Assembly (NCBI GenBank): GCA_000092065.1
Contig: CP000583.1
Origin: Ostreococcus lucimarinus
Lineage: Eukaryota
Direction: 5' to 3' (one strand)
Length of the DNA: 64,000 bases
The position numbers and the translations under genes were made by a program. Shown one piece after another: positions 41,516-56,740 of this stretch. Position 1 is the stretch's first letter, and each line of letters begins with the position of its first letter. The notes under the pieces were generated by a model. It was not told the origin of the DNA, made no database searches, and was given only the letters and a program-made list of their open reading frames with translations.

Positions 41516-44500
41516 CTAAATCGTTTCACCCGTGGCCTTCTCGTATTGCGTCTTGAGAGCGACGACGAGACGCCAATCATCCTTCGTCAATTCTTCACGG
41601 AAGCTTTCCTTCAACATGTCGATCGACTCGCGCGTCATTCTCGATACGAGCTGATCTTTATGATCAAAATGGCGACCGTAAAGTCGCGAAGATTCACTGG
41701 GCGTTCTCGGTTCGATCTTCATCGCCACAGATTGACCGGCAGTTGCCTTCTTCACCTCCTTGTGGTTGAGTTCCATCGAAGCAATCTTACCAATGTCGAT
41801 GTAACCTTGCGATGGGATGCAAATTTGCGTCCCCACGCGAGCGACCCCCTTGACAATGTCAACACCAACGACGATGGGATCGCGCTTGTTGAACACGCAG
41901 TTGGGCATGATTTGCAAGATGCAAGGGAAGTTGACGTGCTGCGACGCGGCTTCACGCTTGTCTGCCTTGACCTTTTCCATGTACGCCGTGAATTGATCAA
42001 ACAAGTGGTAGATGATGTCGGCGGTGAAGATGCGAACGTTGAGCTCTTCGCCCATTGCGTGCGCCTCCTTCGTCACCGGCACGTCAAAAGCCAGAATAGT
42101 AGCATACTCGGGCTTTTTGCGCTCGTGCATGACGCTCGCACCCATGACGTCCCGTTTGTTTACCGGGCCAATGGCGATGCCGGCGACGGGAATTTTGACC
42201 GCGTCAGATTTCAAGAACTCCAACAAGGCTTCCAAAGAACCGAGCGTAGACGCCTGCACGTACACGCCTTCGCCACTCTTATCAACACGAGCAAGCACGC
42301 CCTTCATATCACTTAAAACCTCTTCCCTGAGTTCCATTTCGTCGTCTTCAGGATCGAGCACCAAAAGAGACGTACCTGCGACAGCTTTCTCTAATCCAGT
42401 GGCGACGATCTTGATCCCTTGAGCGCCTTCGATTTCCTTGTGATGAATGTAGCTTCCCTTCACCCGCATCTCTCGCATGGGCTGCGGTGTAAGTAATGCA
42501 CGAATTTGAGTCGTAATCGCCCCCTCTAACCCAGCAACGACGATTGTCTGTCCTTCCTTGAGCTTACCGTTGATGAGAATGACGTCAACGCTCGTACCGA
42601 GACCTTCGATCATCTTCACTTCAAGCACGGTACACTGTACGGCAGGCACGTATTGAATGCGCTCGTTCATGCGATTTTGGCACAAGTCAACAAGCGTTTG
42701 CAAAATGTCCGGCATCCCCTCACCCGTAATAGCAGAGGTTGGGATGATGTTGATGAAAGTACGTGGGTCCGGGTTCTCCCAGTACTTCGCCACGTTCAAA
42801 CCTTGCTCAGCAAACTCGATGACGATCTTGTCGTAACGATCTTGGAACTCGCGTCGAGCGTGATCCTTTTGTAAGGACAAAGTCTCCTGTGTTGGGAAGT
42901 TGGTATTTTCCGTCCAGTCGTACATGCGATCGATTTTGTTGAGCGCAATCACAAAAGGCGTCTTTCGCGATCGAAGCATGTTCAACGATTCTATCGTTTG
43001 CGGCTCTAAGCCGTGCATGATATCAACGACGAGAATGGCGAGATCACAAAGTGACGAACCTCTCGAACGCAAGTTTGTGAAAGACTCGTGTCCTGGGGTA
43101 TCGATAACGAGCAAACCGGGAACTCGCAAGTCCCATTCACCCTTGTTTAGCTGCGCCGTTCGCTCGAGGAGAGACTCCTTGGGAATAAAAGTCGCACCAA
43201 TTTGCTGCGTAATACCGCCAGCTTCTCCGTCTTGGACGTTGGTTCGTCGAATGTTATCCAATATCTTCGTCTTACCGGTATCAACGTGCCCCATGATGCA
43301 TATAATTGGGCAACGAAGCTTGCTTGGACTGCGCTTTGCCTTGGCCAACTCGAAGCGTGCCAAACGCGCAATCTTTGCCGCCTCCATGCGCTCTTCGTGT
43401 TCACGTTGACGGACGTCATCGCTATCCTCGCGGTAATCCGAGCTATCGGAGTACTCAGAGCTGTCGCTGTCGGAATCAGAGTCAGAATCAGAGCCAGAAT
43501 CAGAGCCAGATCCTTCGTCAGATTCTTCGTCAGAGCCCGAAGCGTCAGCAGCTTCCTTGGCTGCGGCGGCCTTTTCCTTGGCTTCCTTGGCCCACGGCTT
43601 TTCAGCCGCAATCTTCGCCTTGATCGCCTTCTCCGCCGCGAATTTGGCCGCAGCCTCAGCCGCTTTCTTCTCCGTCTCGTGACGTTTCTGCTCGGCGGCC
43701 TCTTTCTCCGCCTTTTCCTTAGCCAAGCGCTCCTCCTCTTCTTTCTGACCCGGAAGGATAATCTCCTTGTCGTCCCAGTCTTCCGCTTCCCAGTCATCGG
43801 CAGCGTCGTCATCTTCAGCTTCGGCGGCGAGTCGGGCTTCTTCTTCAGCTTTAGCCTTCGCTTCAGCCTCAGCACGCTCTTGTTGTTGCTTTCGACGCTC
43901 TTCCATCTCTTTCTTCTTTTTGCGATCGTCGTAAACCGGACGTTTCGGCTTGATAACTTCGTCGAGTTTATCTGCGTCAATCCCAGACTTGGCTAACATT
44001 TGCTGGCGCATCGCGGCTAAACGCGCTTGTTCCGCCTTTTGCTTGTTGCTGAGAAGTTTGCCTTCGGCACGGAGGCGCTCCTTCTTCTCCTTCTCTTTTT
44101 GTTTCTTTGCCTCGCGACGCGCTTCCTCCTCTTCTTCTTTTTGTTTCTCAAGACGTTCAGCCTCCTCCGCCGCGGCTCTTGCCTCGGCTTCAGCTTTGGC
44201 TTGAGCCTCTTCCACCTCCTTACGCTTTTGCATTTCTGCTTGAAGGGCGAGAATTCTCGCACTTGGCGCGCCGGCAGACTTTTGCTTCTTCTCCGCCTCT
44301 GCCGCCGCCTTGGCCTTGGCTTCCTTTTCTTTTTGCTTCTTCTTGAGCTTCTTCTTTTGCGACGCCGAAAGCTCTTTGCCATCTTCAAGCGCATCGCCGT
44401 CATCATCATCATCATGATTATTGCCATCGGTAGCAGGCGCCGCATCGGCGGCATCACCGCCAGCTGCGGCTTCCGCGGCTTCGCGCTCGGCTTTCAATCG

Positions 44501-45778
44501 GCGCTTCTTTGCCGCTTTACTCTCGCCAGCCGGCTCTTCTGGCTTGGCCTCGATTTTGATGTCAAGCTCGGCCAAAAGAGCGTCGAGGTCTTCCTCGTCG
44601 TCGGCCGCTTGCTTACCACCTTTTTTCTTTTTCTTCTTGTCCTTCTTCGAGCCACCAGTTTCGTTGGCGACGAGTTCGGGTTCGGGTTCGGGTTCGGGTT
44701 CGGGCGTCTTTTCCTTCTTCGTCGTCCCGGGCGCTTTCAAAGGCACATCATCGCCGATGGAAAAAGCAGACTTATCGAGCTCGTACACGCCATCCGCGCT
44801 ATCGGCCCAACCCATCTCCACCGCGCTGAGAATCATACCTTCACTCATGACGCCGCGCAACGGCGTCTTGTCGATGACTTGGCCGCTGGCGGGGATTTTC
44901 ACGCCGACGCCTGCAAAAATCACCAACAAACCTTTTCTGGCGTTGGCACCACCGCACACGCACCGTTTCGGTTCGTCGCCGCCGAAATCGACGGTGCAAA
45001 CTTGCAGACGATCCGCCATCGGGTGCTTGCTGCATTCGATGATCTTACCCACGACGAGTTCGGGTTCGGCGACGAGCTTTTTCTTTTTCTTCTTTTTGAG
45101 ATCAATCGCGACTTCCACCGCCGCGGCTTCCTCGTCGGCATCCATGAGATCGGCAAAGCTTCCCTTCTTCTTCTTCTTTTTGTCTTTCGTGTCCGCGGTG
45201 CGAGACTCCGAGGCTTCTTCGTCGTCCTCCGCGTCCTCGTCTTCGTCGTCCGCCATCAAAGCCGCGAAGCCGCCCTTTTTGGATTTCTTCTTTTTATCCT
45301 TCTTCGGCTTGACATCCGCCTCCATCTCCTCTTCCTCGTCGTCATCATCGCCACCACCCATCAACGGATCGTTCACGTCGTCGTCCGACCCCATCAACGC
45401 CGCGAAACCACCTTTTTTGGATTTCTTCTTCTCCTTCTTCGGCTTCGTCGCCGCCGCCGCCGCGCGCACCTCCTCCTCCGACGCGTCGTCCGCGTCATCC
45501 GCGTCGTCATCCGACCCCATCAACGCCGCGAAACCTCCCTTTTTAGACGTTTTCTTCCCCTTCCTCGGTTTCACCGCGCGCGTCTCCCCCTCGTCCGCCT
45601 CCTCTTCGTCCGCCTTCTTCGCCGCCGCCGCCAGAGGGTCCAAATCCTCGTCCGAGTCCTCCCCTCGTCCTCTCCCGCCCCGCCCGCCCTTGCCCTTCGC
45701 CGCCTTTCGCGCCTTTTTCATCTCCGTCTTCGACATCGCTCTCGCGCCGTCGTCCGCGTCTTTCGCGCCGTCGTCGCG

Positions 45779-45816
<38 letters not shown>

Positions 45817-45898
45817 CCGAGGGATCGACCCCGTCGTCGTCGTCGCTCGAATCGTCCCCTCGCTTGCCCTTGCGCCCGGCTCGCTTGCCCTTCGCCAT
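41516..45898 (-). CDS. EIF5B: Translation initiation factor eIF5B (IF2 family GTPase) with a long K/E/D-rich N-terminal region that contains an EMAP/Myf-type tRNA-binding OB domain
   Basis: G domain IICIMGHVDTGKT, DTPGHESF, NKIDR; domains II-IV are collinear with eIF5B to the C-terminus. A Myf-like block LVVGKIIECSKHPMADRLQVCTVDFGGDEPKRCVCGGAN…RGVMSEGMILSAVE sits in the same open frame. ATG (MAKGKRAGRKGKRG…) at complement of 45896-45898. Confidence 0.85.
45145..45550. repeat. Four tandem peptide repeats (K-rich-GGFAALMGSDDD-acidic) inside the eIF5B N-terminal region
   Basis: SKKGGFAALMGSDDD occurs three times plus a degenerate GSFADLMDAD copy in the translated minus frame. Confidence 0.7.
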
Positions 45899-46034
45899 CG
45901 CGCGGCGCGCGGGAACGTTCTCTCTCGCGCGCCGTCCGTCGTCGGCGCGCGCTCGCGCGTCGCGCGCGCGTCGCGGTGTGTCCATCGCGCCGTCGCATCT
46001 TTTAAACGTCGAGACATCGCGACGCGCGCGCGCG

Positions 46035-46496
46035 ATGCGCGCCGACGCGCGCGCGCTCGGCGGCGACGACGACGCGCGCGACGTCGCGCGCGACGTCGAC
46101 GACGGCGACGCGACGCGCGCGATGGCCGACGCCGACGCCGACGCCGACGACGCGCGCGAGGACGCGACGACGACGACGACGACGACGCCGCCGACGAACG
46201 AACGACGCGACGCGCGCGAGCGCGCCGGCGACGTCGCGCGCGCGTCGCTCGCGATCGCGCTGCTCGCGGTCGCCCTCGCGAGGCTGCGACGGTGGGCGAG
46301 GGGCGACGGCGACGCGCGCGGCGGCGCGCCGGGACGCGTCAGCAGGCGCTTCGCCGCGCGGCACAGGAAGTGTAATCGATGCGGCGCGCGCGGGTCGGCG
46401 GTCAAGGTGAAGTGCGAGCGGTGTAAAAGGTGCTGGTACTGCTCGCAGACGTGCAAGAAAGCGGCGTGGGCGCTGGAAATTTGCGAGTGTTGTTGA
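46035..46496 (+). CDS. Hypothetical small protein with one TM helix and a C-terminal Cys-rich (MYND-like) zinc-finger motif
   Basis: ATG at 46035. …SLAIALLAVALARL… then CNRCGARGSAVKVKCERCKRCWYCSQTCKKAAW…CECC. Low-complexity Ala/Arg/Asp-rich middle. Confidence 0.3.
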   Translation: MRADARALGGDDDARDVARDVDDGDATRAMADADADADDAREDATTTTTTTPPTNERRDARERAGDVARASLAIALLAVALARLRRWARGDGDARGGAPGRVSRRFAARHRKCNRCGARGSAVKVKCERCKRCWYCSQTCKKAAWALEICECC

Positions 46497-47473: not shown

Positions 47474-50191
47474 ATGTCGACGCGCGCGAAATCGATCGCC
47501 GCGGCGACGCTCGGCGTCGTTTTCGTCGCGCTGTGCGCTGTGCGCGCTGATGGATTCGCAATCGAGCCGCGGTGCGTCGACGACGCGCGACGCTACGACG
47601 ACGTCACGCGACGCGCGCTGACGACGCGGGCGACGTGCGCGGACATCGCGCGCGGCGCGGAGGCGCTCGAAGCGCTCGGAGCGTCGACGTGCGGTGCGGT
47701 GGGCGCGCGCGCGCGATTTCTGGCGGCGAAGCTCAACGCGGCGACGGGCGCGTGGGACGACGCGAAGCGCGCGCTCGCGGGCGACGAGACGAGCGAATTA
47801 TGGAAAACAATAGATGAGATGTCGCGCGCGGCGCGGGTGGGGTCGGAGGCGGGAAGACGAGGGGATTGGGTGAAGGCGTACGCGGCGGCGAACGCGGCGG
47901 TTGAGGCGAGCGCGTGCGCTTTGGATCCGAGGACGTTTCAAGCGCGCGCGCGCGCGGCGTTGAAGTTGGCGATGCACGGAAGGGCGTTCGTGGATGCGAA
48001 ACGCGCGCTCGCGCTGGGGGGGGGGAAGTCAGAGGCGTACGAGACGATGGCGACGGCGTTGAGCGAGTTGGCGGATTCCGCCGAGCGGTTAGCCGACGCC
48101 GAGACGCTGGCGCGGCGTTGTTTGCGGTACAGCCCGGACAACGTCGAGTGTTTGGTAGTTAGAAAAAATATTAGGCGAGCGCTGTTGGTTTGGCGCGAAG
48201 CGAGCGATGCGGAATCGCTCGGGGATTGGAGTTCGGCGATCGACGCTCTGAGGGAGCTGCGAAACGCGACGCGCGGCGGCGCGTTTGAGGCGTTGAAATT
48301 CGACGCGCTCGTCGCGTCGTGTCGCGTGAATGGTAAACGAGAACGCGCGCGTTGGGAGACCAGCACGACGAGAAAGAGGGTTCCCGCCAAACTCGTCGCG
48401 GATGCGATCGATCAGTGCACAGACGCGTTGTCCGAGCTCATGTCGCGCTGCGGCGAAAGTCGCGTCGACGACGTCCCGAATTCGTATTACGCTCGCGCGT
48501 GGATGCGCGCGCTGAGCGCGAACGTAGATGGTGCGATGGCCGACGTAGCGGGGATTGAACGTTCGGTAGATGTATCGTCCGACGATTGGAAGGCGAACGT
48601 TGAGGCGTTGCGAAAAGCCATCGAAGAGGCGCGCGAAGCAAACGCTCCAAAGGATTTATACGCGATTCTGGGATTGACGCGCGAAGATGCACAAGCGGAA
48701 GATTGGCTTCGTGTTTTGAAACGTGCGTACAGAAAGCTGGCACTACTATTACATCCCGATAAAAATCCGGCGGTCGATAAAGAGGAGGCGGAGGAGAAAT
48801 TCGATGAACTCGTCAAGGCGTACAAGATTCTGTCAAGCGAGACGCTTCGTCGCGAATACGACGAGACCGGCAAGGTGAACTTGGGCGTTGACGCGCAAGC
48901 GACGAACGACTGGTTCGACAGTCACGCCGATAGCCGTCGCACGAATGACGGTCAACCGCCAAACGATGGACTTAACGAGGATGATTACATCTTCCGGTTT
49001 GATAAGCGCGACGCCGGGGCGGATGGCCGAGCGGCTGGTCAGTACGTGCACAAAGAAACGGGCGAACGGGTATTCGGTGAACGCGACGTGCGCCCAGAAG
49101 AAGATCAACAGGACGACGTCTGTGCGAAGAAAAAAGGATACTGCATCGCCGGACGAGGCGGCGCCGAGGCTCCGTCGCGCGCCAAGCACGTTCCGGGGGT
49201 CGAATCGCTCGAGGTGAAAATCGTTACGCCGAATCTGCTCCCGGGAGATACCGTGGCGGCGAGGCTCGTTCGAAACATCTTTGGACTTCACAAGCTTGAG
49301 TTCATCTTTGCTTTTGACGTCGAGTTACCGAGCGAAGAAGTTCGCGACAAGACTTTTCAAGACGCAGCGAAAACGCGTTTGAGAAGACTCGTGCGTACCC
49401 TGCACGCGTCCCTCGTCGGCCGCGACGGGGCGTCGACGCTCACGAGCATGATTGAAGAGCACATCGTGAGTTCGTCGTCTTCAGAAGACGATTCGATCGT
49501 AGACTACGTGGCATCCGCGATGAGCGGTCGCGCACCACGCGTCGGATCGCCTCACGAGACGCGGGATCTTCTGGATCGCTTTGCGTCGCGCGCCACGCGC
49601 GAGATGAGACGGCTCGGCGCCTTGGGACTCAATTCCGACGATCGCACCGATAATTTCGTGCGCGTCGCGCGTGACTTGATGTTCAACCCCTTGGTATCGT
49701 CTCACTTGCTCTCATTCACCGCCGACGACGCCGAAGACGCCTCACAGGTTCGAAGTCTCGTCGCCCTCTGGCGCGACGACGTCCCCAGCCGCGTCCTCGT
49801 CGACGGCGACGTCCTCTCCTACGAAATCAAATTCGTCGATTCCGACAAGTCTCCCGACGCCGTGCGAGCGATGTGCGCCACCTTAGACTTCGAAACCACC
49901 GCGGGCGACCGCCTCAGCGCCTTCCCCGACGCCATCGATCAATTCGGCCTCGCCGCCGCCGTCGCCGCCGTCAATTTCCGCGACGTCCTCGCGCGAGACG
50001 CCGTAAACGGTTGGATCTCGCGTCGCATCCCCATCCCTTCCGGCCTCATCGGCGCGCGCGTTTCGTCCTGGTTCATCGTCGCCGCCCGCATCGACGCCGG
50101 TCGCGCGTCCACGCGCGTCCGCGAGGTCAAAATCATCAACGCCTTCGCGGACGCCGACGACTTCGCCATCCTCGAGCCGCGCGGACCCTGA
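47474..50191 (+). CDS. DnaJ (J-domain) protein with an N-terminal signal peptide and a TPR-like helical region (DNAJC3/P58IPK-like architecture) plus a long C-terminal extension
   Basis: Signal-like MSTRAKSIAAATLGVVFVALCAVRADG. J domain DLYAILGLTREDAQ…AYRKLALLLHPDKNP…KFDELVKAYKILSSETLRREYD with the HPD motif. Confidence 0.65.
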   Translation: MSTRAKSIAAATLGVVFVALCAVRADGFAIEPRCVDDARRYDDVTRRALTTRATCADIARGAEALEALGASTCGAVGARARFLAAKLNAATGAWDDAKRALAGDETSELWKTIDEMSRAARVGSEAGRRGDWVKAYAAANAAVEASACALDPRTFQARARAALKLAMHGRAFVDAKRALALGGGKSEAYETMATALSELADSAERLADAETLARRCLRYSPDNVECLVVRKNIRRALLVWREASDAESLGDWSSAIDALRELRNATRGGAFEALKFDALVASCRVNGKRERARWETSTTRKRVPAKLVADAIDQCTDALSELMSRCGESRVDDVPNSYYARAWMRALSANVDGAMADVAGIERSVDVSSDDWKANVEALRKAIEEAREANAPKDLYAILGLTREDAQAEDWLRVLKRAYRKLALLLHPDKNPAVDKEEAEEKFDELVKAYKILSSETLRREYDETGKVNLGVDAQATNDWFDSHADSRRTNDGQPPNDGLNEDDYIFRFDKRDAGADGRAAGQYVHKETGERVFGERDVRPEEDQQDDVCAKKKGYCIAGRGGAEAPSRAKHVPGVESLEVKIVTPNLLPGDTVAARLVRNIFGLHKLEFIFAFDVELPSEEVRDKTFQDAAKTRLRRLVRTLHASLVGRDGASTLTSMIEEHIVSSSSSEDDSIVDYVASAMSGRAPRVGSPHETRDLLDRFASRATREMRRLGALGLNSDDRTDNFVRVARDLMFNPLVSSHLLSFTADDAEDASQVRSLVALWRDDVPSRVLVDGDVLSYEIKFVDSDKSPDAVRAMCATLDFETTAGDRLSAFPDAIDQFGLAAAVAAVNFRDVLARDAVNGWISRRIPIPSGLIGARVSSWFIVAARIDAGRASTRVREVKIINAFADADDFAILEPRGP

Positions 50192-50273: not shown

Positions 50274-51095
50274 ATGCACGTCGCCCTCGCGAACCTCGCG
50301 CTGTGCCCGCGCGCGCGCGCGTCGTCCGTCGTCGCGCGCGACGTCGCGAGCGGTAGGTCAACTTTCGCGGGCGTCCCCGTCGTCGTCGCGCGCGCCGCGC
50401 GCGCGCCGAGCGCCCCGCGCGCGCGCGGGATGACGCCCGTCACCGCGCGGTTCGGCGGACGCGGCGGACGCGGCGGCGGCGGACGCTCGTTCGGTGGACG
50501 TGGACGCGGCGGGGGCGGGCGCGGGCGAGGCGGACGCGGACGAGGTCGCGGACGACCGCAGATGGACCGAGGACCGATGCGAAACGAAGACATCGAGTTC
50601 GATGAATTGCGGGTGCTGGACGAGGATAAAGAGATGCTCGGGGTGATGTCCACGGACGAGGCGCTGGAACTCGCGGCGGAGAAGGAATTGGATTTGGTGG
50701 TCATGAGCCCGGACGCGGAGCCGCCGTTGGCGCGAATCATGAATTACTCAAAGTACAAGTACGAAAAGGAAAAGAAGGATCGGGAGGCGAGGAAGAAGGC
50801 GGCGGCGGTGCGCGTGGACATCAAAGAATTGAAAATGAGGTACAACATCGATACGCACGATTACGGGGTGCGACTGAGGGCGGCGCAAAAGTTTTTGGAG
50901 GGCGGGGACAAGGTTAAGGTGATTTGTCAGTTTCGCGGGCGCGAGAACGACTTCCGGGAGATTGGGCGGGAGATGTTCGCTCGATTCGTAGAGGACGTTG
51001 GCGAGGTGGGCTCGCTCGAGAGCAAGCCTAGCATGGAAGGGAACTCGATGACGATGTTACTCGCACCCACGGTCGCCAAGGGCGACAGCAAGTAA
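50274..51095 (+). CDS. infC: Organellar translation initiation factor IF-3 (infC-type) with a presequence and a Gly/Arg-rich (RGG) region
   Basis: …IEFDELRVLDEDKEMLGVMSTDEALELAAEKELDLVVMSPDAEPPLARIMNYSKYKYEKEKK… and the C-terminal IF3_C region (VKVICQFRGRE…). Confidence 0.75.
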   Translation: MHVALANLALCPRARASSVVARDVASGRSTFAGVPVVVARAARAPSAPRARGMTPVTARFGGRGGRGGGGRSFGGRGRGGGGRGRGGRGRGRGRPQMDRGPMRNEDIEFDELRVLDEDKEMLGVMSTDEALELAAEKELDLVVMSPDAEPPLARIMNYSKYKYEKEKKDREARKKAAAVRVDIKELKMRYNIDTHDYGVRLRAAQKFLEGGDKVKVICQFRGRENDFREIGREMFARFVEDVGEVGSLESKPSMEGNSMTMLLAPTVAKGDSK

Positions 51096-51214: not shown

Positions 51215-54200
51215 TCACGCATTCGCGATGCGTTTTGGCGGCAGACCGCTCGGAAACGCCTGTTCTCCTTCGCCCGGGAGCACCGCTTCGGCGAACATTT
51301 CGACTTGCAACTTTGCGTTACTCAGCACGGCTTGCGTGATGTGTCTACAGGGTCGATGTTCTCGCGTGATGCCCGCATCGGAGAAAAATCTGTCCCAGAT
51401 ATCACACACCGCTTCCATTTCTCGGATGTCTTTGAGGTGAATTTTCACTTGCAGCAAGTGAGCGACGTCAGTGCCGGCCATCACGAGGAGTCTGACCAAA
51501 TTATCAAACACACGGCGCATTTGTCCCGTGAACGTGGGTTCGACCACACCGCCACAAGTAATACCAGAAAGCCACACTTGTCGTCCCCAGGTGACAACTG
51601 GAGAGCAATCCAAGCCACCAGGATTGTGGTACACGACCTGCGTGTTTGCGTCTGGCGCGTGCAACGCCAGCGCTCCACGCCCGGCGCCACGACGACGATC
51701 GCCACCTTGTGACGTACCGCTTTCTAACACCGCAATTCGATCCTCGTACTGAACGTTCGTTCGCGTTGCGATTTCATGCGAGCGCGCAAGCTCTTCGTGC
51801 GAGCGCACGAGTTCTTTGTGCGCTGCAGAAAGTTCTTTGAACGAGTTTACGAGTTGCTGGAAATTTTTCACCTCGACGATTTCGTTACCCGGTAACGCGT
51901 CGTCCAGCTCACGCGTCATTCTCTTCACTGGAACCAAGGCATGCGTTTCATCCTCCGCAGTAACGCTCGCAGCTCGAGATCTCTTACGTCTGCTCGGCGG
52001 CTCAACGGGGATGGGAATCGTCTTGTGCTTCATCCTCATGTGCGTGCACAAACCCCTATGTTGCTTCGCTTTGAACTCGCACTCTGGACATTGGAGTTGG
52101 TCCGTTAAAATTTCCATGTGTTTGGTACTAGAATGGACTCCCTTGTCGTGGACTACCGTCTCATCCACTTCCTCCATGTCAGTCTGATTGAGTGCCACCC
52201 GATCTTCGATGACGGCTGCCGCCGCAATCAGTTCAACGTTGTGTTCTTTCTTGTAGTGCGTGCAAAGCTGTCTGAACGACTTGCATTTGAAATCTCCAGC
52301 CGCACACTCGTCGCAAAACCGAACGCCAGGATCCATCTCTTTCGTGCGAGGAGGTCCCGGGAAACTAACTCCGACGTTCAGGGGCTCTTCTTCGAGTGGT
52401 GAGGTTTGGGGGTGCTTCAACTTGCAGCTGCGCAGATGAGCTGCAAACCCTGCATTCCAGAAACCCGTGTACGTCTGACAGTACTCGCACGTTATCTGCG
52501 TCTTTTTCGATTTACCACTCGGACGATCGGTATCTCTCGTCTCATGTGTGAGCTTATTCGGTTTTGACAACGAAGGTTTCGGCTCTGAAGTTGGCAACGA
52601 CGCATCACTCGACGAGTTCATCAACGCCTCCGCCTCTTTAAACTCTTTCGCGGTAATGAATGCCCGTACATTGTGCGCGTCTTTGTAGTGAGCGATCAGC
52701 CCTGAATTGTTTGGAAACTTGGCCGAGCACTCTGCACAACTTCTTTGCGTGTGAAAGATGCGTAAGATTGTCGTTTCTGTTTGCGGTCGAACGGACTGTT
52801 CTTCGACGGCAGGCTCGTCGCCGGGTGACTCTCCTTGTGCAGACTGTTTACCAATTCGCGTGACTTTAACGCCGTGTTCCACCTGCATGTGTCGCACTAA
52901 ATCATCGAAAGAAGTACCTTTGAACTCGCAACCGCTTTCTTCTCGAAGTAAACATTTTCTACTCTTCGCGCCGACGGATAGCTCTTTGAGCGGCGTGTGA
53001 GCTTCAGACGCAATTTTTGGAGGCGCCTTATCTGTTGCCTTCGTGACCACTTGGGCATTAGGGACGCTCGTAGCGGCTGATTTCGCTCCTTTGCACCATC
53101 GCGCTTTGTGCGTCACGAGCCCGGCTGGCGACTTAACTGAAACTCCACACACATCGCAAGCCGTCGAATGATTGGTGACGATGACAGACGCTTGCGTTTT
53201 GTTTTTCTTCTCTACCGCACCAGCGGTCAAAGGCACGATTAGTTCGCCGCGATGCTTCATCTTGCTCTGATGTATTTTTAGCGAGTGCGCATTCTTGAAC
53301 GACTTTCCACACTCAGTGCACGCACATTCCTGCGACTCGTTCGTAGACTTGTCGATGTCACGACCTCTGCTCGCTGCTCGCTCGTCTTCGTCGTCGATAC
53401 CTACGGTGTAACGCGAAGGTCTCGCGGCTGTTCGCCGCTTTCGATTGGGTTCAGTAGACTCGTTCGCAGTCAGCTTGTCGTCAACATTCGATACGTCGTC
53501 AAAAAGATTTTCAGGTGTCTTGAGAAGCGCAGCCTTGTTCGCTGGTCGATCATCATCGCTGTCTGCGTTGTGCGTAGCCTCTGCTTCAGCACGATGCTTC
53601 ACTGTATCGCTTCTCGGCCCATCGTCGTCGGCGTCGCTGTCGCGATCCGTCTCATCCTTGTCGTTCTCGTCCTCCATCACGAATGCGCTCACCATCTCGG
53701 CTTGGTCCATGGCGGGTTGCTCGGCCCAATACTTTTCGACGTGCTGCTGATACTCGGCGAAAGTCTCTTCGGGCTTGGCGCTGCAGTAACTCACGACGTG
53801 TTTCTTGAACGCGAGGTATCCGTTAAACTTTTTCTGCGCGCCGCAAAAGCAACACTCGATATCCTTGTAGATCTTGTACTCTCTGTTACCGTCCGGGCTC
53901 ATCTGGTCGACCCCGCGCGGCGTCGGCACTTCAACATCTATCGTCGTCGGACTCGAAACCGCGAGCGCTGGTGCCGGCGTGCGCGCCGGCGCCTCGTTCG
54001 CGACTTCGCCGTCCTTCGTCGTCTTGTCGCTATTCGGACTTCCATTCGCGCCCTGCCCCGGGCTCCGCGCCGGCGTCGCCGTCTGCACCTCGTTCCCATC
54101 ACCCGCGCCCGCGTCCACTTTCCCATCGCTCACCACCGCCGCGACCTCGCTCGCGGGCGGTTGACCCGGTAAACCTCCCTCCGCCGACATCGCGCCGTCG

Positions 54201-54289
54201 CGTCGACCTCCGCGCTCGCCTTCGCCGTCCTCCCCGCGTCGATTCGACCGTCTCGATCGAGTCCTGCGCGCGTCCGCGTCGTCAGTCAT
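51215..54289 (-). CDS. Multi-C2H2 zinc-finger protein carrying a C-terminal RidA/YjgF/endoribonuclease L-PSP-like domain
   Basis: At least 7 C2H2-type fingers (e.g. CTECGKSFKNAHSLKIHQSKMKH; CPECEFKAKQHRGLCTHMRMKHK). The C-terminal ~130 aa (…SPVVTWGRQVWLSGI…GQMRRVFDNLVRLLVMAGTDVAHLLQVKIHLKD…FAEAVLP) are collinear with RidA. One uninterrupted frame. The start ATG is tentatively 54289 or 54190. Confidence 0.6.
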   Translation of the reverse strand: MTDDADARRTRSRRSNRRGEDGEGERGGRRDGAMSAEGGLPGQPPASEVAAVVSDGKVDAGAGDGNEVQTATPARSPGQGANGSPNSDKTTKDGEVANEAPARTPAPALAVSSPTTIDVEVPTPRGVDQMSPDGNREYKIYKDIECCFCGAQKKFNGYLAFKKHVVSYCSAKPEETFAEYQQHVEKYWAEQPAMDQAEMVSAFVMEDENDKDETDRDSDADDDGPRSDTVKHRAEAEATHNADSDDDRPANKAALLKTPENLFDDVSNVDDKLTANESTEPNRKRRTAARPSRYTVGIDDEDERAASRGRDIDKSTNESQECACTECGKSFKNAHSLKIHQSKMKHRGELIVPLTAGAVEKKNKTQASVIVTNHSTACDVCGVSVKSPAGLVTHKARWCKGAKSAATSVPNAQVVTKATDKAPPKIASEAHTPLKELSVGAKSRKCLLREESGCEFKGTSFDDLVRHMQVEHGVKVTRIGKQSAQGESPGDEPAVEEQSVRPQTETTILRIFHTQRSCAECSAKFPNNSGLIAHYKDAHNVRAFITAKEFKEAEALMNSSSDASLPTSEPKPSLSKPNKLTHETRDTDRPSGKSKKTQITCEYCQTYTGFWNAGFAAHLRSCKLKHPQTSPLEEEPLNVGVSFPGPPRTKEMDPGVRFCDECAAGDFKCKSFRQLCTHYKKEHNVELIAAAAVIEDRVALNQTDMEEVDETVVHDKGVHSSTKHMEILTDQLQCPECEFKAKQHRGLCTHMRMKHKTIPIPVEPPSRRKRSRAASVTAEDETHALVPVKRMTRELDDALPGNEIVEVKNFQQLVNSFKELSAAHKELVRSHEELARSHEIATRTNVQYEDRIAVLESGTSQGGDRRRGAGRGALALHAPDANTQVVYHNPGGLDCSPVVTWGRQVWLSGITCGGVVEPTFTGQMRRVFDNLVRLLVMAGTDVAHLLQVKIHLKDIREMEAVCDIWDRFFSDAGITREHRPCRHITQAVLSNAKLQVEMFAEAVLPGEGEQAFPSGLPPKRIANA

Positions 54290-54859
54290 CCCATCGCGCG
54301 CGCGTTCCGTCGTTCCGACCCGCGCGCGCCGCGCGCCGCGCGCGTCGACCGCTCGCGCGGGTCGAAATTCTCCAATTTCAACCTCCGACCGATTCCCCGC
54401 GGTGTTCCGCGCGTCGCCGTCGCGCGCCCGACCGTCGCGCGCCCCCTCGCCCGCGCGCGATCGCCCGCGCGCGATCGCCCGCGCGCGTCCGCCCGCGCGC
54501 GCGGCGCGTCTCGCGCGCGCGCGACCGCGCGAGCGCTCGACGACGCGCATTTGACCTCGCGACCGCGGCGACCGCGCGCGCCGATGCGCCGCGCGCGCGC
54601 GCGCGAGATCGATGCGTCGCGCTCGCGCGCGCGAAGACGTCGGTCGTGATCCGTACCTCGCGTTGGATTCGCTCGCGGGGCGCGCGCGCGCGTCGAGGAG
54701 TGCGCATTGGGCGCGCATTCGATGCGGAGACGACGAGACGCCGCGAGGCGTCGCGCGAAGCGTCGCGCGAGGGCGAACGCGCGCGACGCGGCGACGACGA
54801 GAGGGAACGACGCGTCTGGACGACGCGGCGCTGATGATGATGCGTGACTAGTGAGAAAT

Positions 54860-55588
54860 CTAGCGCTGGCTAAGAGCGCGCGCGGGCGGCGGCGGTTGGG
54901 ACGCGCGCTCGCGAACGACGCGACGCTTGCGAACGCAGCCGCAACAGGAGGTTTCCTCCTCGACGGTTTCGACGAACGGCGACGGGTCGCTCGGACCCGG
55001 TGCGGTCGGCGCGGGATCGCTCGCGGGATTGAGCTCGGACGCGGCGTCGGCGTGGAGCTTGGCGCGGGCTTTGGCGGCCCATCGGTCGAGGGATCGCGCG
55101 CGCGCGAACGGCTTGGCCGCGTCGTCGGCGGCGTTCGTCGTCTCGGCGTTCGTGGTGGTGGTGGTGGTGGTGGTGGTCGTCGATCCATCGGTGAGATCGA
55201 GCTTCGTTCGCGCGACTGGGGTATCCAGAAACGACAGCGCGCGCGGCGTCGCGGGCGCGCGCGCGTCCGCGGTCGCCGGTGCGAACTCGAAGCTCGCGTC
55301 CGCGTCCTCCGTCGGCGTCGCCGCCGGCGTTCGTCGTTTGTTCTCGCTCACCGCGCTCAGCTCGTTCGGCACCAATCGCTCGCTCATCGTCTCACGCTCG
55401 CTCACGGACGCCCTGCCGTCCCCCGGGCGGTTCAAAGGCGTCGCGCCCTCGCCCCGCCGTCGAACCGACGCGTGCGCCTTGACGCGCTGCGCCTCGACGC
55501 GCGCCGCGTACGCGTCGTACTCCTCCAACGCCGCCGACCCATTCTTCGCCACGTACGCGTGAAACCATCGCAATAAATTATTATTTTC
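54860..55588 (-). CDS. EB1: EB1-family microtubule plus-end-binding protein, exon 2 (linker and C-terminal region with a poly-Thr tract)
   Basis: Begins after a TAG acceptor: …ENNNLLRWFHAYVAKNGSAALEEYDAYAARVEAQ…, which matches EB1 …DNFEFVQWFKKFFDANYDG…DPVAAR. A canonical EBH motif was not clearly recognised, so the 3' structure is uncertain. Confidence 0.45.
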   Translation of the reverse strand, partial: ENNNLLRWFHAYVAKNGSAALEEYDAYAARVEAQRVKAHASVRRRGEGATPLNRPGDGRASVSERETMSERLVPNELSAVSENKRRTPAATPTEDADASFEFAPATADARAPATPRALSFLDTPVARTKLDLTDGSTTTTTTTTTTNAETTNAADDAAKPFARARSLDRWAAKARAKLHADAASELNPASDPAPTAPGPSDPSPFVETVEEETSCCGCVRKRRVVRERASQPPPPARALSQR

Positions 55589-55823
55589 CTACGTTCGCAA
55601 ACGCCCCCCGCGCGGTCGATCGATCGATCGTCAGTCGCGCGTTCGCTCGCGCTCGCGCCTCGCGCTCGAATCCCAACCGCCTCGACTCGCCCGCGCGTCG
55701 TCGTCGTCGCCCGATCCGATCCCCGTCTTCACCGACGCCGTCCATCGCCCCCAAACGCGAGCGCGACTTCCATCCCACGCTTCCCGCGCCTCGCTCGTCG
55801 CGTCGCGTCGTCGTTTCGCGCAC

Positions 55824-56177
55824 CGTGAACTTCCCCTTGGCCAACGCGTCGAAATCCACGTCGACGCGCGTCCCGAGCGCGCGCATCGTCTGCGCCAGCA
55901 CCCGCACGTTCCGCTCGTTATCCCCGACGAACCGCGCGTTGAAATCAAACCTATGCAGCGGCACCTTCCCCGGGTGCATCGCGTCGAGCAGCTGCGCGTA
56001 CGCGACGCCGTCGCCGCACTCTTGCACCGAGGCGTAATCGCTCCGAAGCGCGCGATTGAGCCACGCGACGAGCTCGAGCCGTCCCATCGAGCGCGACGTC
56101 GACGCCGTCGTCGTCGTCGCCGTCGGCGTCGTCGCGCGCGCGGCGCTCGCGCGTCGTCGCGTCGCGGGCGTCGACAT
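55824..56177 (-). CDS. EB1: EB1-family protein, exon 1 (calponin-homology microtubule-binding domain)
   Basis: …GRLELVAWLNRALRSDYASVQECGDGVAYAQLLDAMHPGKVPLHRFDFNARF…VRVLAQTMRALGTRVDVDFDALAKGKFT, then the GTGCGC donor. Confidence 0.7.
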
Positions 56178-56219: not shown

Positions 56220-56331
56220 ATGGCGAGCGCGCGCGGGTTCTGCGAACGCTGCGGCGCGCGCCTGCGGCTGACGACGCGCGCGCCCGACGTGCGGTGCGAC
56301 GCGTGCGGCAGGGCGCGCGCGCTCGAGGACG
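56220..56331 (+). CDS. RPA12: RNA polymerase I subunit RPA12 (ZNRD1-like), exon 1 (N-terminal zinc ribbon)
   Basis: MASARGFCERCGARLRLTTRAPDVRCDACGRARALED. The frame must change to reach the C-terminal ribbon. Proposed intron 56332..56474 (GGTGCG…CCGCAG). Confidence 0.55.
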
Positions 56332-56395
56332 GTGCGACGCCGACGCGACGACGGACGAAGCGGCGGCGGCGAGGAAAAGCGACGAAAAGAAAGAC

Positions 56396-56435
56396 GCGAC
56401 GCGACGCGACGCGACGCGACGCGACGACGGTGAAC
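56396..56435. repeat. (GCGAC)8 pentanucleotide microsatellite inside the proposed RPA12 intron
   Basis: gcgacgcgacgcgacgcgacgcgacgcgacgcgacgcgac read directly. Confidence 0.9.
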
Positions 56436-56474
56436 GCGGACTGACGACGCGCGATGACCGCGATGACGCCGCAG

Positions 56475-56740
56475 CGTTCGGGGACGGCGAGCGCGAGCTC
56501 ACGGCGGGGGCGAGGGAGTTTAAGTTTCATCACGGCGTCGAGGCGAGACATCCGAACGGGACGCGCGTGGGCGCGACGGAGGAGGTGACGCGAGAGCGCG
56601 CGACGGTGGACGAAAAGTGTCCGAAATGTAAGCATAAGGGGTTAAACTTTTACACGATGCAGTTGAGGAGCGCGGATGAGGGGCAGACGGTGTTTTATGA
56701 GTGTCCGAAGTGCTCGCACACGTTTTCGCAAAACAACTGA
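56475..56740 (+). CDS. RPA12: RPA12 exon 2 (TFIIS-type C-terminal zinc ribbon)
   Basis: CPKCKHKGLNFYTMQLRSADEGQTVFYECPKCSHTF contains the Q-x-RSADE-GQTVFY signature characteristic of the RPA12/RPB9/RPC11 C-ribbon, closest to RPA12. Confidence 0.7.

Follow-up and report, generated by a model that had tools for sequence, protein, structure and literature searches.

A stretch of 64,000 nucleotides from Ostreococcus lucimarinus (assembly GCA_000092065.1, contig CP000583.1), referred to as a whole as the window, carries on its minus strand a long open reading frame (ORF) that contains several zinc-finger motifs and ends in a block resembling the Rid/YjgF family of enzymes. The locus raises the questions whether both parts belong to one gene and, if so, what a Rid domain does at the end of a zinc-finger protein. 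A reading made from the DNA letters alone (the sequence-only reading) had placed a RidA domain at 51215..51640, in frame at the C-terminus of a large multi-zinc-finger protein, and had named missing profile support as a ground for abandoning the idea. Profile support is clear: PF01042 (Ribonuc_L-PSP / YjgF / Rid) matches residues 896-1003 of the 1024-aa (amino acid) translation with 46.5 bits (gathering threshold 27.3; E = 4.5e-12; 109 of 121 profile positions), and the Rid-matching part comprises the last ~145 residues of the protein. The block had been located essentially correctly; with its N-terminal strand and C-terminal tail the domain occupies 51218..51652 (tblastn), and the peptides quoted from it are present in the translation. 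The principal features are:

51215..54190, minus strand: complete single-exon coding sequence of a zinc-finger / coiled-coil / Rid protein, 991 aa plus stop, delimited by the continuous ORF, the public gene model and conservation from the first Met.
51275..51652, minus strand: Rid-superfamily domain, Rid2/YoaB-like, with the PF01042 match at 51281..51604.

The architecture and homology reported here, and their origin in a single uninterrupted gene, we consider almost certain.

A single gene from zinc fingers to Rid domain

The minus-strand frame 51215..54289 contains zero stop codons, as had been claimed, and stays open upstream as far as 54718. The longest stop-free run in 500 base shuffles is 293 codons, against 991 in the real gene, which places the length of the ORF far beyond chance. 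A start at 54289, as assumed in the sequence-only reading, is 33 codons too far upstream, since both the public model (MSAEGGLPGQ) and the conservation among orthologues begin at the Met at 54190. The GC content of third codon positions (GC3) is 0.57-0.59 and even over the finger, linker and Rid parts of the gene.

The zinc-finger/Rid fusion is already contained in the public gene model XP_001417056.1: a 100%-identical cluster includes the 991-aa protein of Ostreococcus lucimarinus CCE9901 (XP_001417056.1 / ABO95349.1 / UniRef100_A4RV11; UniProt A4RV11). Public names of A4RV11 are "predicted protein" and "C2H2-type domain-containing protein", and its IMG copies are called "enamine deaminase RidA". 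Literature searches for a zinc-finger/Rid fusion found no paper describing A4RV11. Taken singly, domain, fingers and gene model are known objects; their combination is present in public annotation, and the searches found no account of it. A search of the window for a second Rid gene found none.

A full-protein search returned five clusters at 90% identity (100, 89, 39, 39 and 35% identical to the query), with ORFs of 963-1111 aa, and all five combine a finger with PF01042. Orthologue loci are syntenic with the window, IF3 and DnaJ genes lying downstream on the other strand and CH/EB1, sulfotransferase, EMP24 and PIGA genes upstream. The segment between finger 8 and the Rid domain is itself conserved, with an ALVPVK(R/K) motif and a helix of ~50 residues. 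Ratios of nonsynonymous to synonymous substitution (dN/dS) between loci L004 and L005 are 0.28 for the fingers, 0.23 for the linker and 0.07 for the Rid domain; between the window and L001, which differ by few substitutions, the ratio is about 0.5 throughout and below 1 everywhere.

These data bear on the alternative that the fusion is an artefact of annotation or reading, the Rid block being an independent gene in frame behind a zinc-finger gene. The sequence-only reading had itself left room for splicing from an overlooked upstream exon, and had seen no start Met before the block. An in-frame Met does exist (MTRELDD, 51899..51919), at a distance of 234 codons from the stop, and starts at or close to it are sometimes chosen by metagenome gene callers (P0007, 234 aa; P0063, 245 aa); frame changes between fingers and Rid in L009 and in the high-GC loci L010 and L011 might likewise suggest two genes. 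That Met, the only one in frame ahead of the Rid block, is however Ile or Leu in orthologues, and no start codon is conserved before the block. Further against two genes, the linker is conserved and under purifying selection, GC3 is uniform, and the single ORF holds in lineages at 35-40% and at ~20% identity. The one piece of transcript-level evidence, an ORF from the MMETSP transcriptomes (P0072) of a more distant relative, crosses the junction and encodes finger 8, linker and Rid domain as a unit, where the sequence-only reading would have yielded to transcripts of an independent Rid gene. The artefact is effectively excluded, and we assign it a negligible probability.

The apparent standalone short forms (hits of 229-245 aa) were rejected as independent genes: P0063 and P0066 trace back to an internal GTG call and to a long-read assembly full of frameshifts, and P0007 to an internal-Met call within a long ORF. 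An intron at the junction in L009 was rejected as well. There the frame change between fingers and Rid is due to a 19-nucleotide insertion (GAAACTCGCGTCGCACGCG, L009:1301-1319) in the variable linker, which puts the Rid domain out of frame. Without GT..AG ends it is no intron, but an indel, a fault of the assembly or an allele that has been disrupted, and P0070, from the same lineage, is an intact 948-aa protein with 32 cluster members. In L010:1-1800 and L011:3000-7400 (70-72% GC) the finger-coding and Rid-coding parts lie in different frames, which suggests short introns or, in L011, a polished long-read assembly, assembly errors. Many database members from the L010 and L011 lineages are fragments of 50-190 aa.

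Upstream of the gene, both strands of 54286..55600 have 71% GC and are crowded with long overlapping Arg/Ala/Pro-rich ORFs in several frames, among them the stretch by which the zinc-finger ORF extends 5' as far as 54718. By their composition these ORFs look like artefacts rather than genes, and they show no conservation in the orthologue alignment. A transposon or retro-element origin of the zinc-finger/Rid gene was considered and rejected: its support consists of a Retrotrans_gag match of E = 0.12 and a generic IMG label ("transposase-like") on P0256, and it is contradicted by the gene being syntenic and single-copy within the window.

Affinities of the Rid domain

An AlphaFold2 (AF2) model of the Rid domain alone, built from a 13-sequence alignment, has a mean predicted local distance difference test (pLDDT) of 87.6 and a predicted template modelling (pTM) score of 0.84. 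Its strands (E) and helices (H) follow the order E E E H E H E E, in agreement with the chorismate-mutase-like beta-alpha-beta-alpha-beta-beta fold. Foldseek returned 165 PDB matches at E <= 1e-3 for this model; the best 50 of the 165 are all Rid-family structures, with template modelling (TM) scores, normalised by target, of up to 0.87. The top matches are PA5083, PSPTO_0102, NMB1025 and YoaB (target TM 0.80-0.87). In a search of the PDB with the family profile, Rid2-type structures likewise fill the first four places (among them PSPTO_0102 with 66.8, PA5083 with 55.6 and YoaB/3gtz with 52.3 bits), RidA types scoring at most 51 bits.

The sequence-only reading was right about the superfamily; its narrower label, RidA, does not hold, as the domain is not an archetypal RidA. 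On TIGR00004, the NCBIfam model of the RidA subfamily, whose cutoff is 106.25 bits, the window domain scores 33.7 and three other members score 29-37. Standalone Rid2-like proteins reach 54-74 bits on the same model. The nearest standalone relatives, among 1.84 billion representative proteins, are 116-122 aa long, and one of them (P0160) matches Rid2 structures at 1e-24 to 1e-26. The beta2-alpha1 loop is short and of Rid2 type, 4-5 residues shorter than the RidA loop. Specific to the zinc-finger/Rid family are a 5-6-residue insertion after helix 2 and an invariant Arg in an "FGR" motif. One further feature is confined to the Ostreococcus-type clade:

51218..51274, minus strand: C-terminal tail GEGEQAFPSGLPPKRIANA, with E, A, G and PP positions invariant in six sequences; missing or different in distant family members.

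For a joint alignment, 13 family members were combined with E. coli RidA (sequence verified against 1qu9), V. vulnificus RidA and three Rid2 references. In a neighbour-joining tree without support values, the zinc-finger/Rid family forms one clade, sister to Rid2. Among the labelled references the domain thus appears nearest to bacterial Rid2/YoaB. As the family forms a clade of its own, has replaced Asn88 and was compared with RidA and Rid2 references only, we call it Rid2-like, not RidA, and do not file it as a Rid2 member. Rid2 is defined by the CDD model YjgF_YER057c_UK114_like_2 (Niehaus et al. 2015). Subfamilies Rid1-7 are described as occurring only in prokaryotes (PMC5619798), and measured against that description a eukaryotic Rid2-like clade comes as a modest surprise. 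A literature search on structures of Rid2 proteins found no relevant paper.

Distribution and conservation of the fusion

In an exhaustive HMMER search of the 1.84 billion representative proteins with a Rid-domain profile, long proteins with a C-terminal Rid match rank directly after the Ostreococcus-type sequences. They measure 911, 1002, 1076, 1305 and 1371 aa, with an additional cluster member of 1646 aa. According to Pfam, all of the long Rid proteins possess C2H2-type fingers, and PF01042 scores 38.9-60.7 bits in the distant members. Altogether, the fusion is kept in four divergent syntenic orthologue clusters (89-35% identity) and in at least eight more distant lineages, with zinc fingers, helical linker and Rid domain sharing one ORF across both. 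GC contents of the contigs bearing family loci range from 54% to 72%. Word-indexed homologue searches with Rid-domain profiles returned fragments only.

Three of the distant members (P0077, P0080 and P0081; 1076-1371 aa) contain one or two plant-type WRC domains each. PF08879 scores above the cutoff of 28.6 bits in P0077 (29.2) and P0080 (46.1), and just under it in P0081 (26.5). The Pfam scan of the O. lucimarinus protein found no WRC domain (PF08879). The family comprises at least a dozen lineages; they belong to marine picoeukaryotes, and from the WRC domains and the sampling sources we infer that the relatives are uncultured green picoplankton.

At ~20% overall identity, the positions left unchanged in the 13-sequence alignment are the finger 8 ligands and some twenty residues within the Rid domain. 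Identity per column averages 55% across the Rid domain versus 23% across the whole protein, which makes the Rid domain the most constrained part of the family.

The search also returned other Rid combinations. In P0135 (842 aa), another uncommon Rid fusion, a HAD-type hydrolase domain comes after a tandem of three Rid domains, and many triple-Rid proteins of ~400 aa are present among the matches.

Zinc fingers, helix and linker

The zinc fingers described in the sequence-only reading are real. A pattern scan detects eight units of the form C-x2-9-C ... H-x3-5-H/C, five of C2H2 and three of C2HC type. All eight ligand sets are invariant across the six Ostreococcus-type sequences, and three sets are conserved family-wide. 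Finger 8 is the sole finger invariant throughout the family (C701, C704 and H717 in all 13 sequences). The Pfam model zf-C2H2 is matched by finger 2 only, just above its cutoff. The fingers lie far apart, without the tandem linkers typical of DNA-reading arrays; acidic and basic motifs, the latter including candidate nuclear localisation signals (NLS), are interspersed among them, and the N-terminus is rich in Pro and Ser. From the N-terminus onwards the features are:

53888..53929, minus strand: N-terminal conserved motif VPTPRGVDQMSPDG with Pro-directed Ser/Thr sites, nearly invariant in the six Ostreococcus-type sequences.
53783..53854, minus strand: zinc finger 1, C2HC, CCFCGAQKKFNGYLAFKKHVVSYC, from the pattern scan; C146/C149/H164/C169 (1024-aa numbering) invariant.
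53408..53440, minus strand: basic motif KRRTAARPSRY, a candidate NLS or DNA contact; R283, R285, R286, R290, P291, R293 and Y294 invariant in six sequences.
53252..53326, minus strand: zinc finger 2, classical C2H2, CTECGKSFKNAHSLKIHQSKMKH; Pfam zf-C2H2 25.7 bits against a cutoff of 25.2.
53093..53158, minus strand: zinc finger 3, C2HC, CDVCGVSVKSPAGLVTHKARWC; also a zf-met match (21.4 bits, cutoff 21.2) covering aa 378-394 of the 1024-aa translation; C345, C348 and H361 nearly invariant in the 13-member family.
52874..52954, minus strand: zinc finger 4, C2H2 with a long first spacer, from the pattern scan; ligands invariant in six sequences.
52673..52738, minus strand: zinc finger 5, C2H2, from the pattern scan and invariant ligands.
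52424..52489, minus strand: zinc finger 6, C2HC, from the pattern scan and invariant ligands.
52241..52315, minus strand: zinc finger 7, C2H2; C626, C629 and H645 nearly invariant family-wide.
52025..52090, minus strand: zinc finger 8, C2H2, CPECEFKAKQHRGLCTHMRMKH; weak Zn_SUZ12 and zf-H2C2_5 matches.
51920..51991, minus strand: basic patch RRKRSR, putatively NLS-like, followed by the conserved ALVPVKR motif; ALVPVK invariant in six sequences.
51719..51865, minus strand: predicted long alpha-helix/coiled coil, about aa 776-824, from the AF2 model, heptad pattern and conservation.
51653..51718, minus strand: non-conserved, flexible Gly/Arg-rich linker, gapped and of varying length among orthologues, with the frame kept.

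In an AF2 model of the C-terminal 241 aa, built from a five-sequence alignment, the helix spans residues 27-75, with a pLDDT of ~70 in the helix centre only. This model of coiled coil plus Rid domain has a pLDDT of 52 and was left out of the fold comparison. The hydrophobic fraction of heptad a/d positions is 0.67-0.75 across seven lineages, with Leu at d and Phe, His or Asn at a, and Leu, Ser, His, Glu and Arg positions of the helix are invariant in the six sequences. Three successive heptad "a" positions are His (AH..L..SH..L..SH), invariant in the six Ostreococcus-type sequences and not in distant members. As pure speculation, these residues could build up layers that respond to metal or pH within an oligomeric coiled coil.

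Function of the fused protein

Rid proteins are trimers with a ligand pocket at the subunit interfaces (PMC4433059), so the C-terminal domain should oligomerise the protein and join several finger arrays. By analogy, we tentatively propose a metabolite-coupled regulator made of Rid trimer, pocket and fingers, a mechanism that is possible rather than probable as a whole. The C-terminal Rid domain would form a trimer with pockets at its subunit interfaces, as in the structurally characterised Rid proteins. This trimer, perhaps aided by the preceding helix, would unite three arrays of fingers in a single particle that binds nucleic acid. The pocket would bind an alpha-carboxylate metabolite (an imino or 2-oxo acid) via an invariant Arg, and may hydrolyse it. 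The status of amino-acid/nitrogen metabolites would in this way be coupled to what the protein does on DNA, most likely as a regulator of transcription, or on RNA.

Two pocket residues, both hallmarks of catalytically competent Rid proteins, carry the ligand-binding part of the proposal (numbering of the 991-aa protein):

51344..51346, minus strand: codon of Arg949, in an RPCR motif, the counterpart of RidA Arg105 (R105 of the aligned E. coli protein); unchanged in all 13 members.
51299..51301, minus strand: codon of Glu964, equivalent to RidA/TdcF Glu120; invariant in 13 of 13 members.

Both are separated by 15 residues, as in RidA. Arg105 binds the carboxylate of the ligand and is catalytically essential in RidA, and it is reported to be both necessary for and predictive of imine-deaminase activity (PMC4433059, PMC5619798). 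Rid2 proteins are active as imine deaminases in vitro, also on iminoarginine (PMC5619798). The invariance of the Arg105 and Glu120 equivalents argues that the pocket still binds an alpha-carboxylate ligand. By its pocket and loop the domain falls outside the RidA subfamily: the Arg105 equivalent is present, and of Tyr17, Asn88 and Glu120 only Glu120 is kept in O. lucimarinus.

Several observations weigh against a working, metabolite-coupled Rid pocket on a DNA-directed protein. Asn88, common to every RidA and Rid2 reference, has given way to other residues in each of the 13 family members, and the Tyr17 position is Cys in O. lucimarinus and Cys, Phe or Ser across the Ostreococcus-type clade. 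With these changes the pocket is unlike that of any characterised Rid enzyme and could be non-catalytic. In the closest pair, the window and L001, the Rid domain is fairly relaxed (dN/dS ~0.49, from few substitutions). The Rid2 placement comes from a comparison with RidA and Rid2 references only. Heptad composition gives no clear sign of a trimeric coiled coil. Finally, a match to zf-met and weak ones to zf-C2H2_jaz hint at an RNA target, not a DNA one.

The pocket changes are what might be expected if the Rid domain were a pseudo-enzyme retained solely as an oligomerisation scaffold, its pocket having neither a ligand nor a catalytic role and regulation coming from elsewhere. Rid proteins, being obligate trimers (PMC4433059), would provide a ready-made trimerisation unit for this purpose; the TIGR00004 scores of the family are low even beside those of Rid2 proteins, and the dN/dS of ~0.49 in the window/L001 pair points the same way. 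A scaffold alone, however, needs neither Arg105 nor Glu120, both invariant among lineages at ~20% identity, and the Rid domain is the most conserved region, with the dN/dS of 0.07 in L004/L005. Tyr17, kept in nine distant members, is also lacking in the characterised Rid2 deaminases. We regard a purely structural Rid domain as unlikely.

The zinc fingers raise a second alternative, namely that the protein acts on RNA, with RNA-binding fingers and with the Rid domain serving as an L-PSP-type ribonuclease or as an RNA-decay adaptor like HRSP12/RIDA. Mammalian HRSP12/RIDA is an adaptor in an RNA-decay complex, and the historical name of the Pfam family is Endoribonuclease L-PSP. Finger 3 passes the zf-met cutoff, several relatives have weak matches to zf-C2H2_jaz, a finger binding double-stranded RNA, and the wide spacing of the fingers differs from that of DNA-reading arrays. 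These zf-met and jaz scores are marginal, though, the ribonuclease activity of Rid proteins is disputed, and the residues kept here belong to the deaminase pocket. The WRC domains in three distant members also speak against RNA; in plant GRF factors, WRC domains are nuclear and bind DNA. Fingers, NLS-like patches and the WRC domains of relatives together argue for a nuclear, nucleic-acid-directed role, and we hold an RNA-based function to be distinctly improbable.

Overall, one fused gene whose product is a metabolite-coupled nucleic-acid-binding regulator is the best explanation, and a reasonably probable one. A wider reading would have the family represent a new class of eukaryotic metabolite-coupled regulators, in which a Rid2-type trimerising sensor or hydrolase ties the amino-acid/nitrogen state to gene regulation in the smallest photosynthetic eukaryotes that live freely; this seems rather unlikely. 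In such a class, the lost Asn88 and the invariant "FGR" Arg would mark a ligand specificity not seen in characterised Rid proteins.

Surrounding genes

A bacterial/plastid-type IF3 gene (50274..51095, plus strand; IF3_N and IF3_C, with a Gly/Arg-rich N-terminal extension) is convergent to the zinc-finger/Rid gene, the two stop codons being 119 bp apart. It is preceded by the gene of a 905-aa DnaJ-domain protein (47474..50191, plus strand). Both neighbours are kept in all orthologous loci that extend far enough. On the other side lies a CH/EB1-like ORF (55581..56177, minus strand), a CH gene being found upstream of the orthologues as well, followed by an ORF (56294..56740, plus strand) with a TFIIS-type zinc ribbon (CPKC...CPKC) at its end, as is typical of small RNA-polymerase subunits.

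Farther away, 41516..46456 (minus strand) contains an ORF for an eIF5B/IF-2-type translation GTPase with a very long Lys/Glu/Asp-rich region, which accounts for a strong GC and AT skew at 44-46 kb. The same ORF possesses an EMAP-type tRNA-binding domain, recognised by the stretch VGKIIECSKHPMADRLQVCTVDFGG in the window and as PF01588 in the L001 orthologue. A tRNA_bind domain on eIF5B looks unusual.

Implications

Work on Rid proteins has dealt almost entirely with small free-standing enzymes that detoxify reactive enamines and imines, and the physiological roles of the non-RidA subfamilies are mostly obscure. The present family is a conserved eukaryotic one that joins a Rid2-like domain, with key pocket residues kept, to a zinc-finger scaffold and sometimes to WRC domains. 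If its pocket is functional, this would be a rare recruitment of a metabolite-damage-control fold into nucleic-acid-directed regulation and a new context for Rid biology. It would then provide a candidate direct link from amino-acid/nitrogen metabolism to gene expression in Ostreococcus, a genetically tractable minimal alga. Even with a dead pocket, the family would be a clear case of an enzyme fold reused as an oligomerisation module.

Comparison with known systems

The best profile and structural matches are the Rid2 proteins PSPTO_0102 of P. syringae (9bk1), PA5083 of P. aeruginosa (9bjv) and YoaB of S. enterica (3gtz), with target TM scores of 0.81-0.87. With these the zinc-finger/Rid domain shares the short beta2-alpha1 loop and the Arg105 and Glu120 equivalents, as well as a residue other than Tyr at the Tyr17 position, the latter in Ostreococcus-type members only. 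Rid2 proteins are standalone, bacterial and ~114-117 aa long, whereas the domain described here is eukaryotic and stands at the end of a zinc-finger/helix scaffold of ~850 aa. The family also differs from Rid2 in its own clade, the helix-2 insertion, the replaced Asn88, the "FGR" Arg and the Ostreococcus C-terminal tail.

RidA itself is a small standalone housekeeping enzyme. The RidA proteins (E. coli 1qu9, TdcF 2uyj, plant plastid RidA 5hp7, mammalian UK114/HRSP12) share fold and superfamily with the zinc-finger/Rid family, the Arg105 and Glu120 equivalents and, in its nine non-Ostreococcus members, Tyr17. Unlike RidA, the family fails TIGR00004 widely and possesses neither the RidA loop insertion nor Asn88.

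Rid domains occur in multidomain proteins elsewhere, in tandem 3x-RidA (Niehaus et al. 2015, PMC4433059) and in the 3xRid-HAD hydrolase. These are prokaryote-type combinations that join Rid to itself or to a metabolic enzyme, without fingers or WRC domains. On the scaffold side, plant-lineage C2H2 and GRF-type WRC nuclear factors resemble the zinc-finger/Rid protein in their C2H2 and C2HC fingers, basic NLS-like patches and acidic stretches. The zinc-finger/Rid protein differs from them in having neither a QLQ domain nor a tandem-linker finger array, and its DNA binding is putative. We know of no factor family that ends in a Rid domain.

That a Rid protein can take part in gene regulation has a precedent in B. 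subtilis YabJ, which is of RidA type and bears the PDB name "purine regulatory protein". YabJ works with the PurR repressor. In that system the Rid protein is a polypeptide distinct from the DNA-binding one, and its effect may be exerted indirectly, via metabolism; in the zinc-finger/Rid family both parts are covalently joined.

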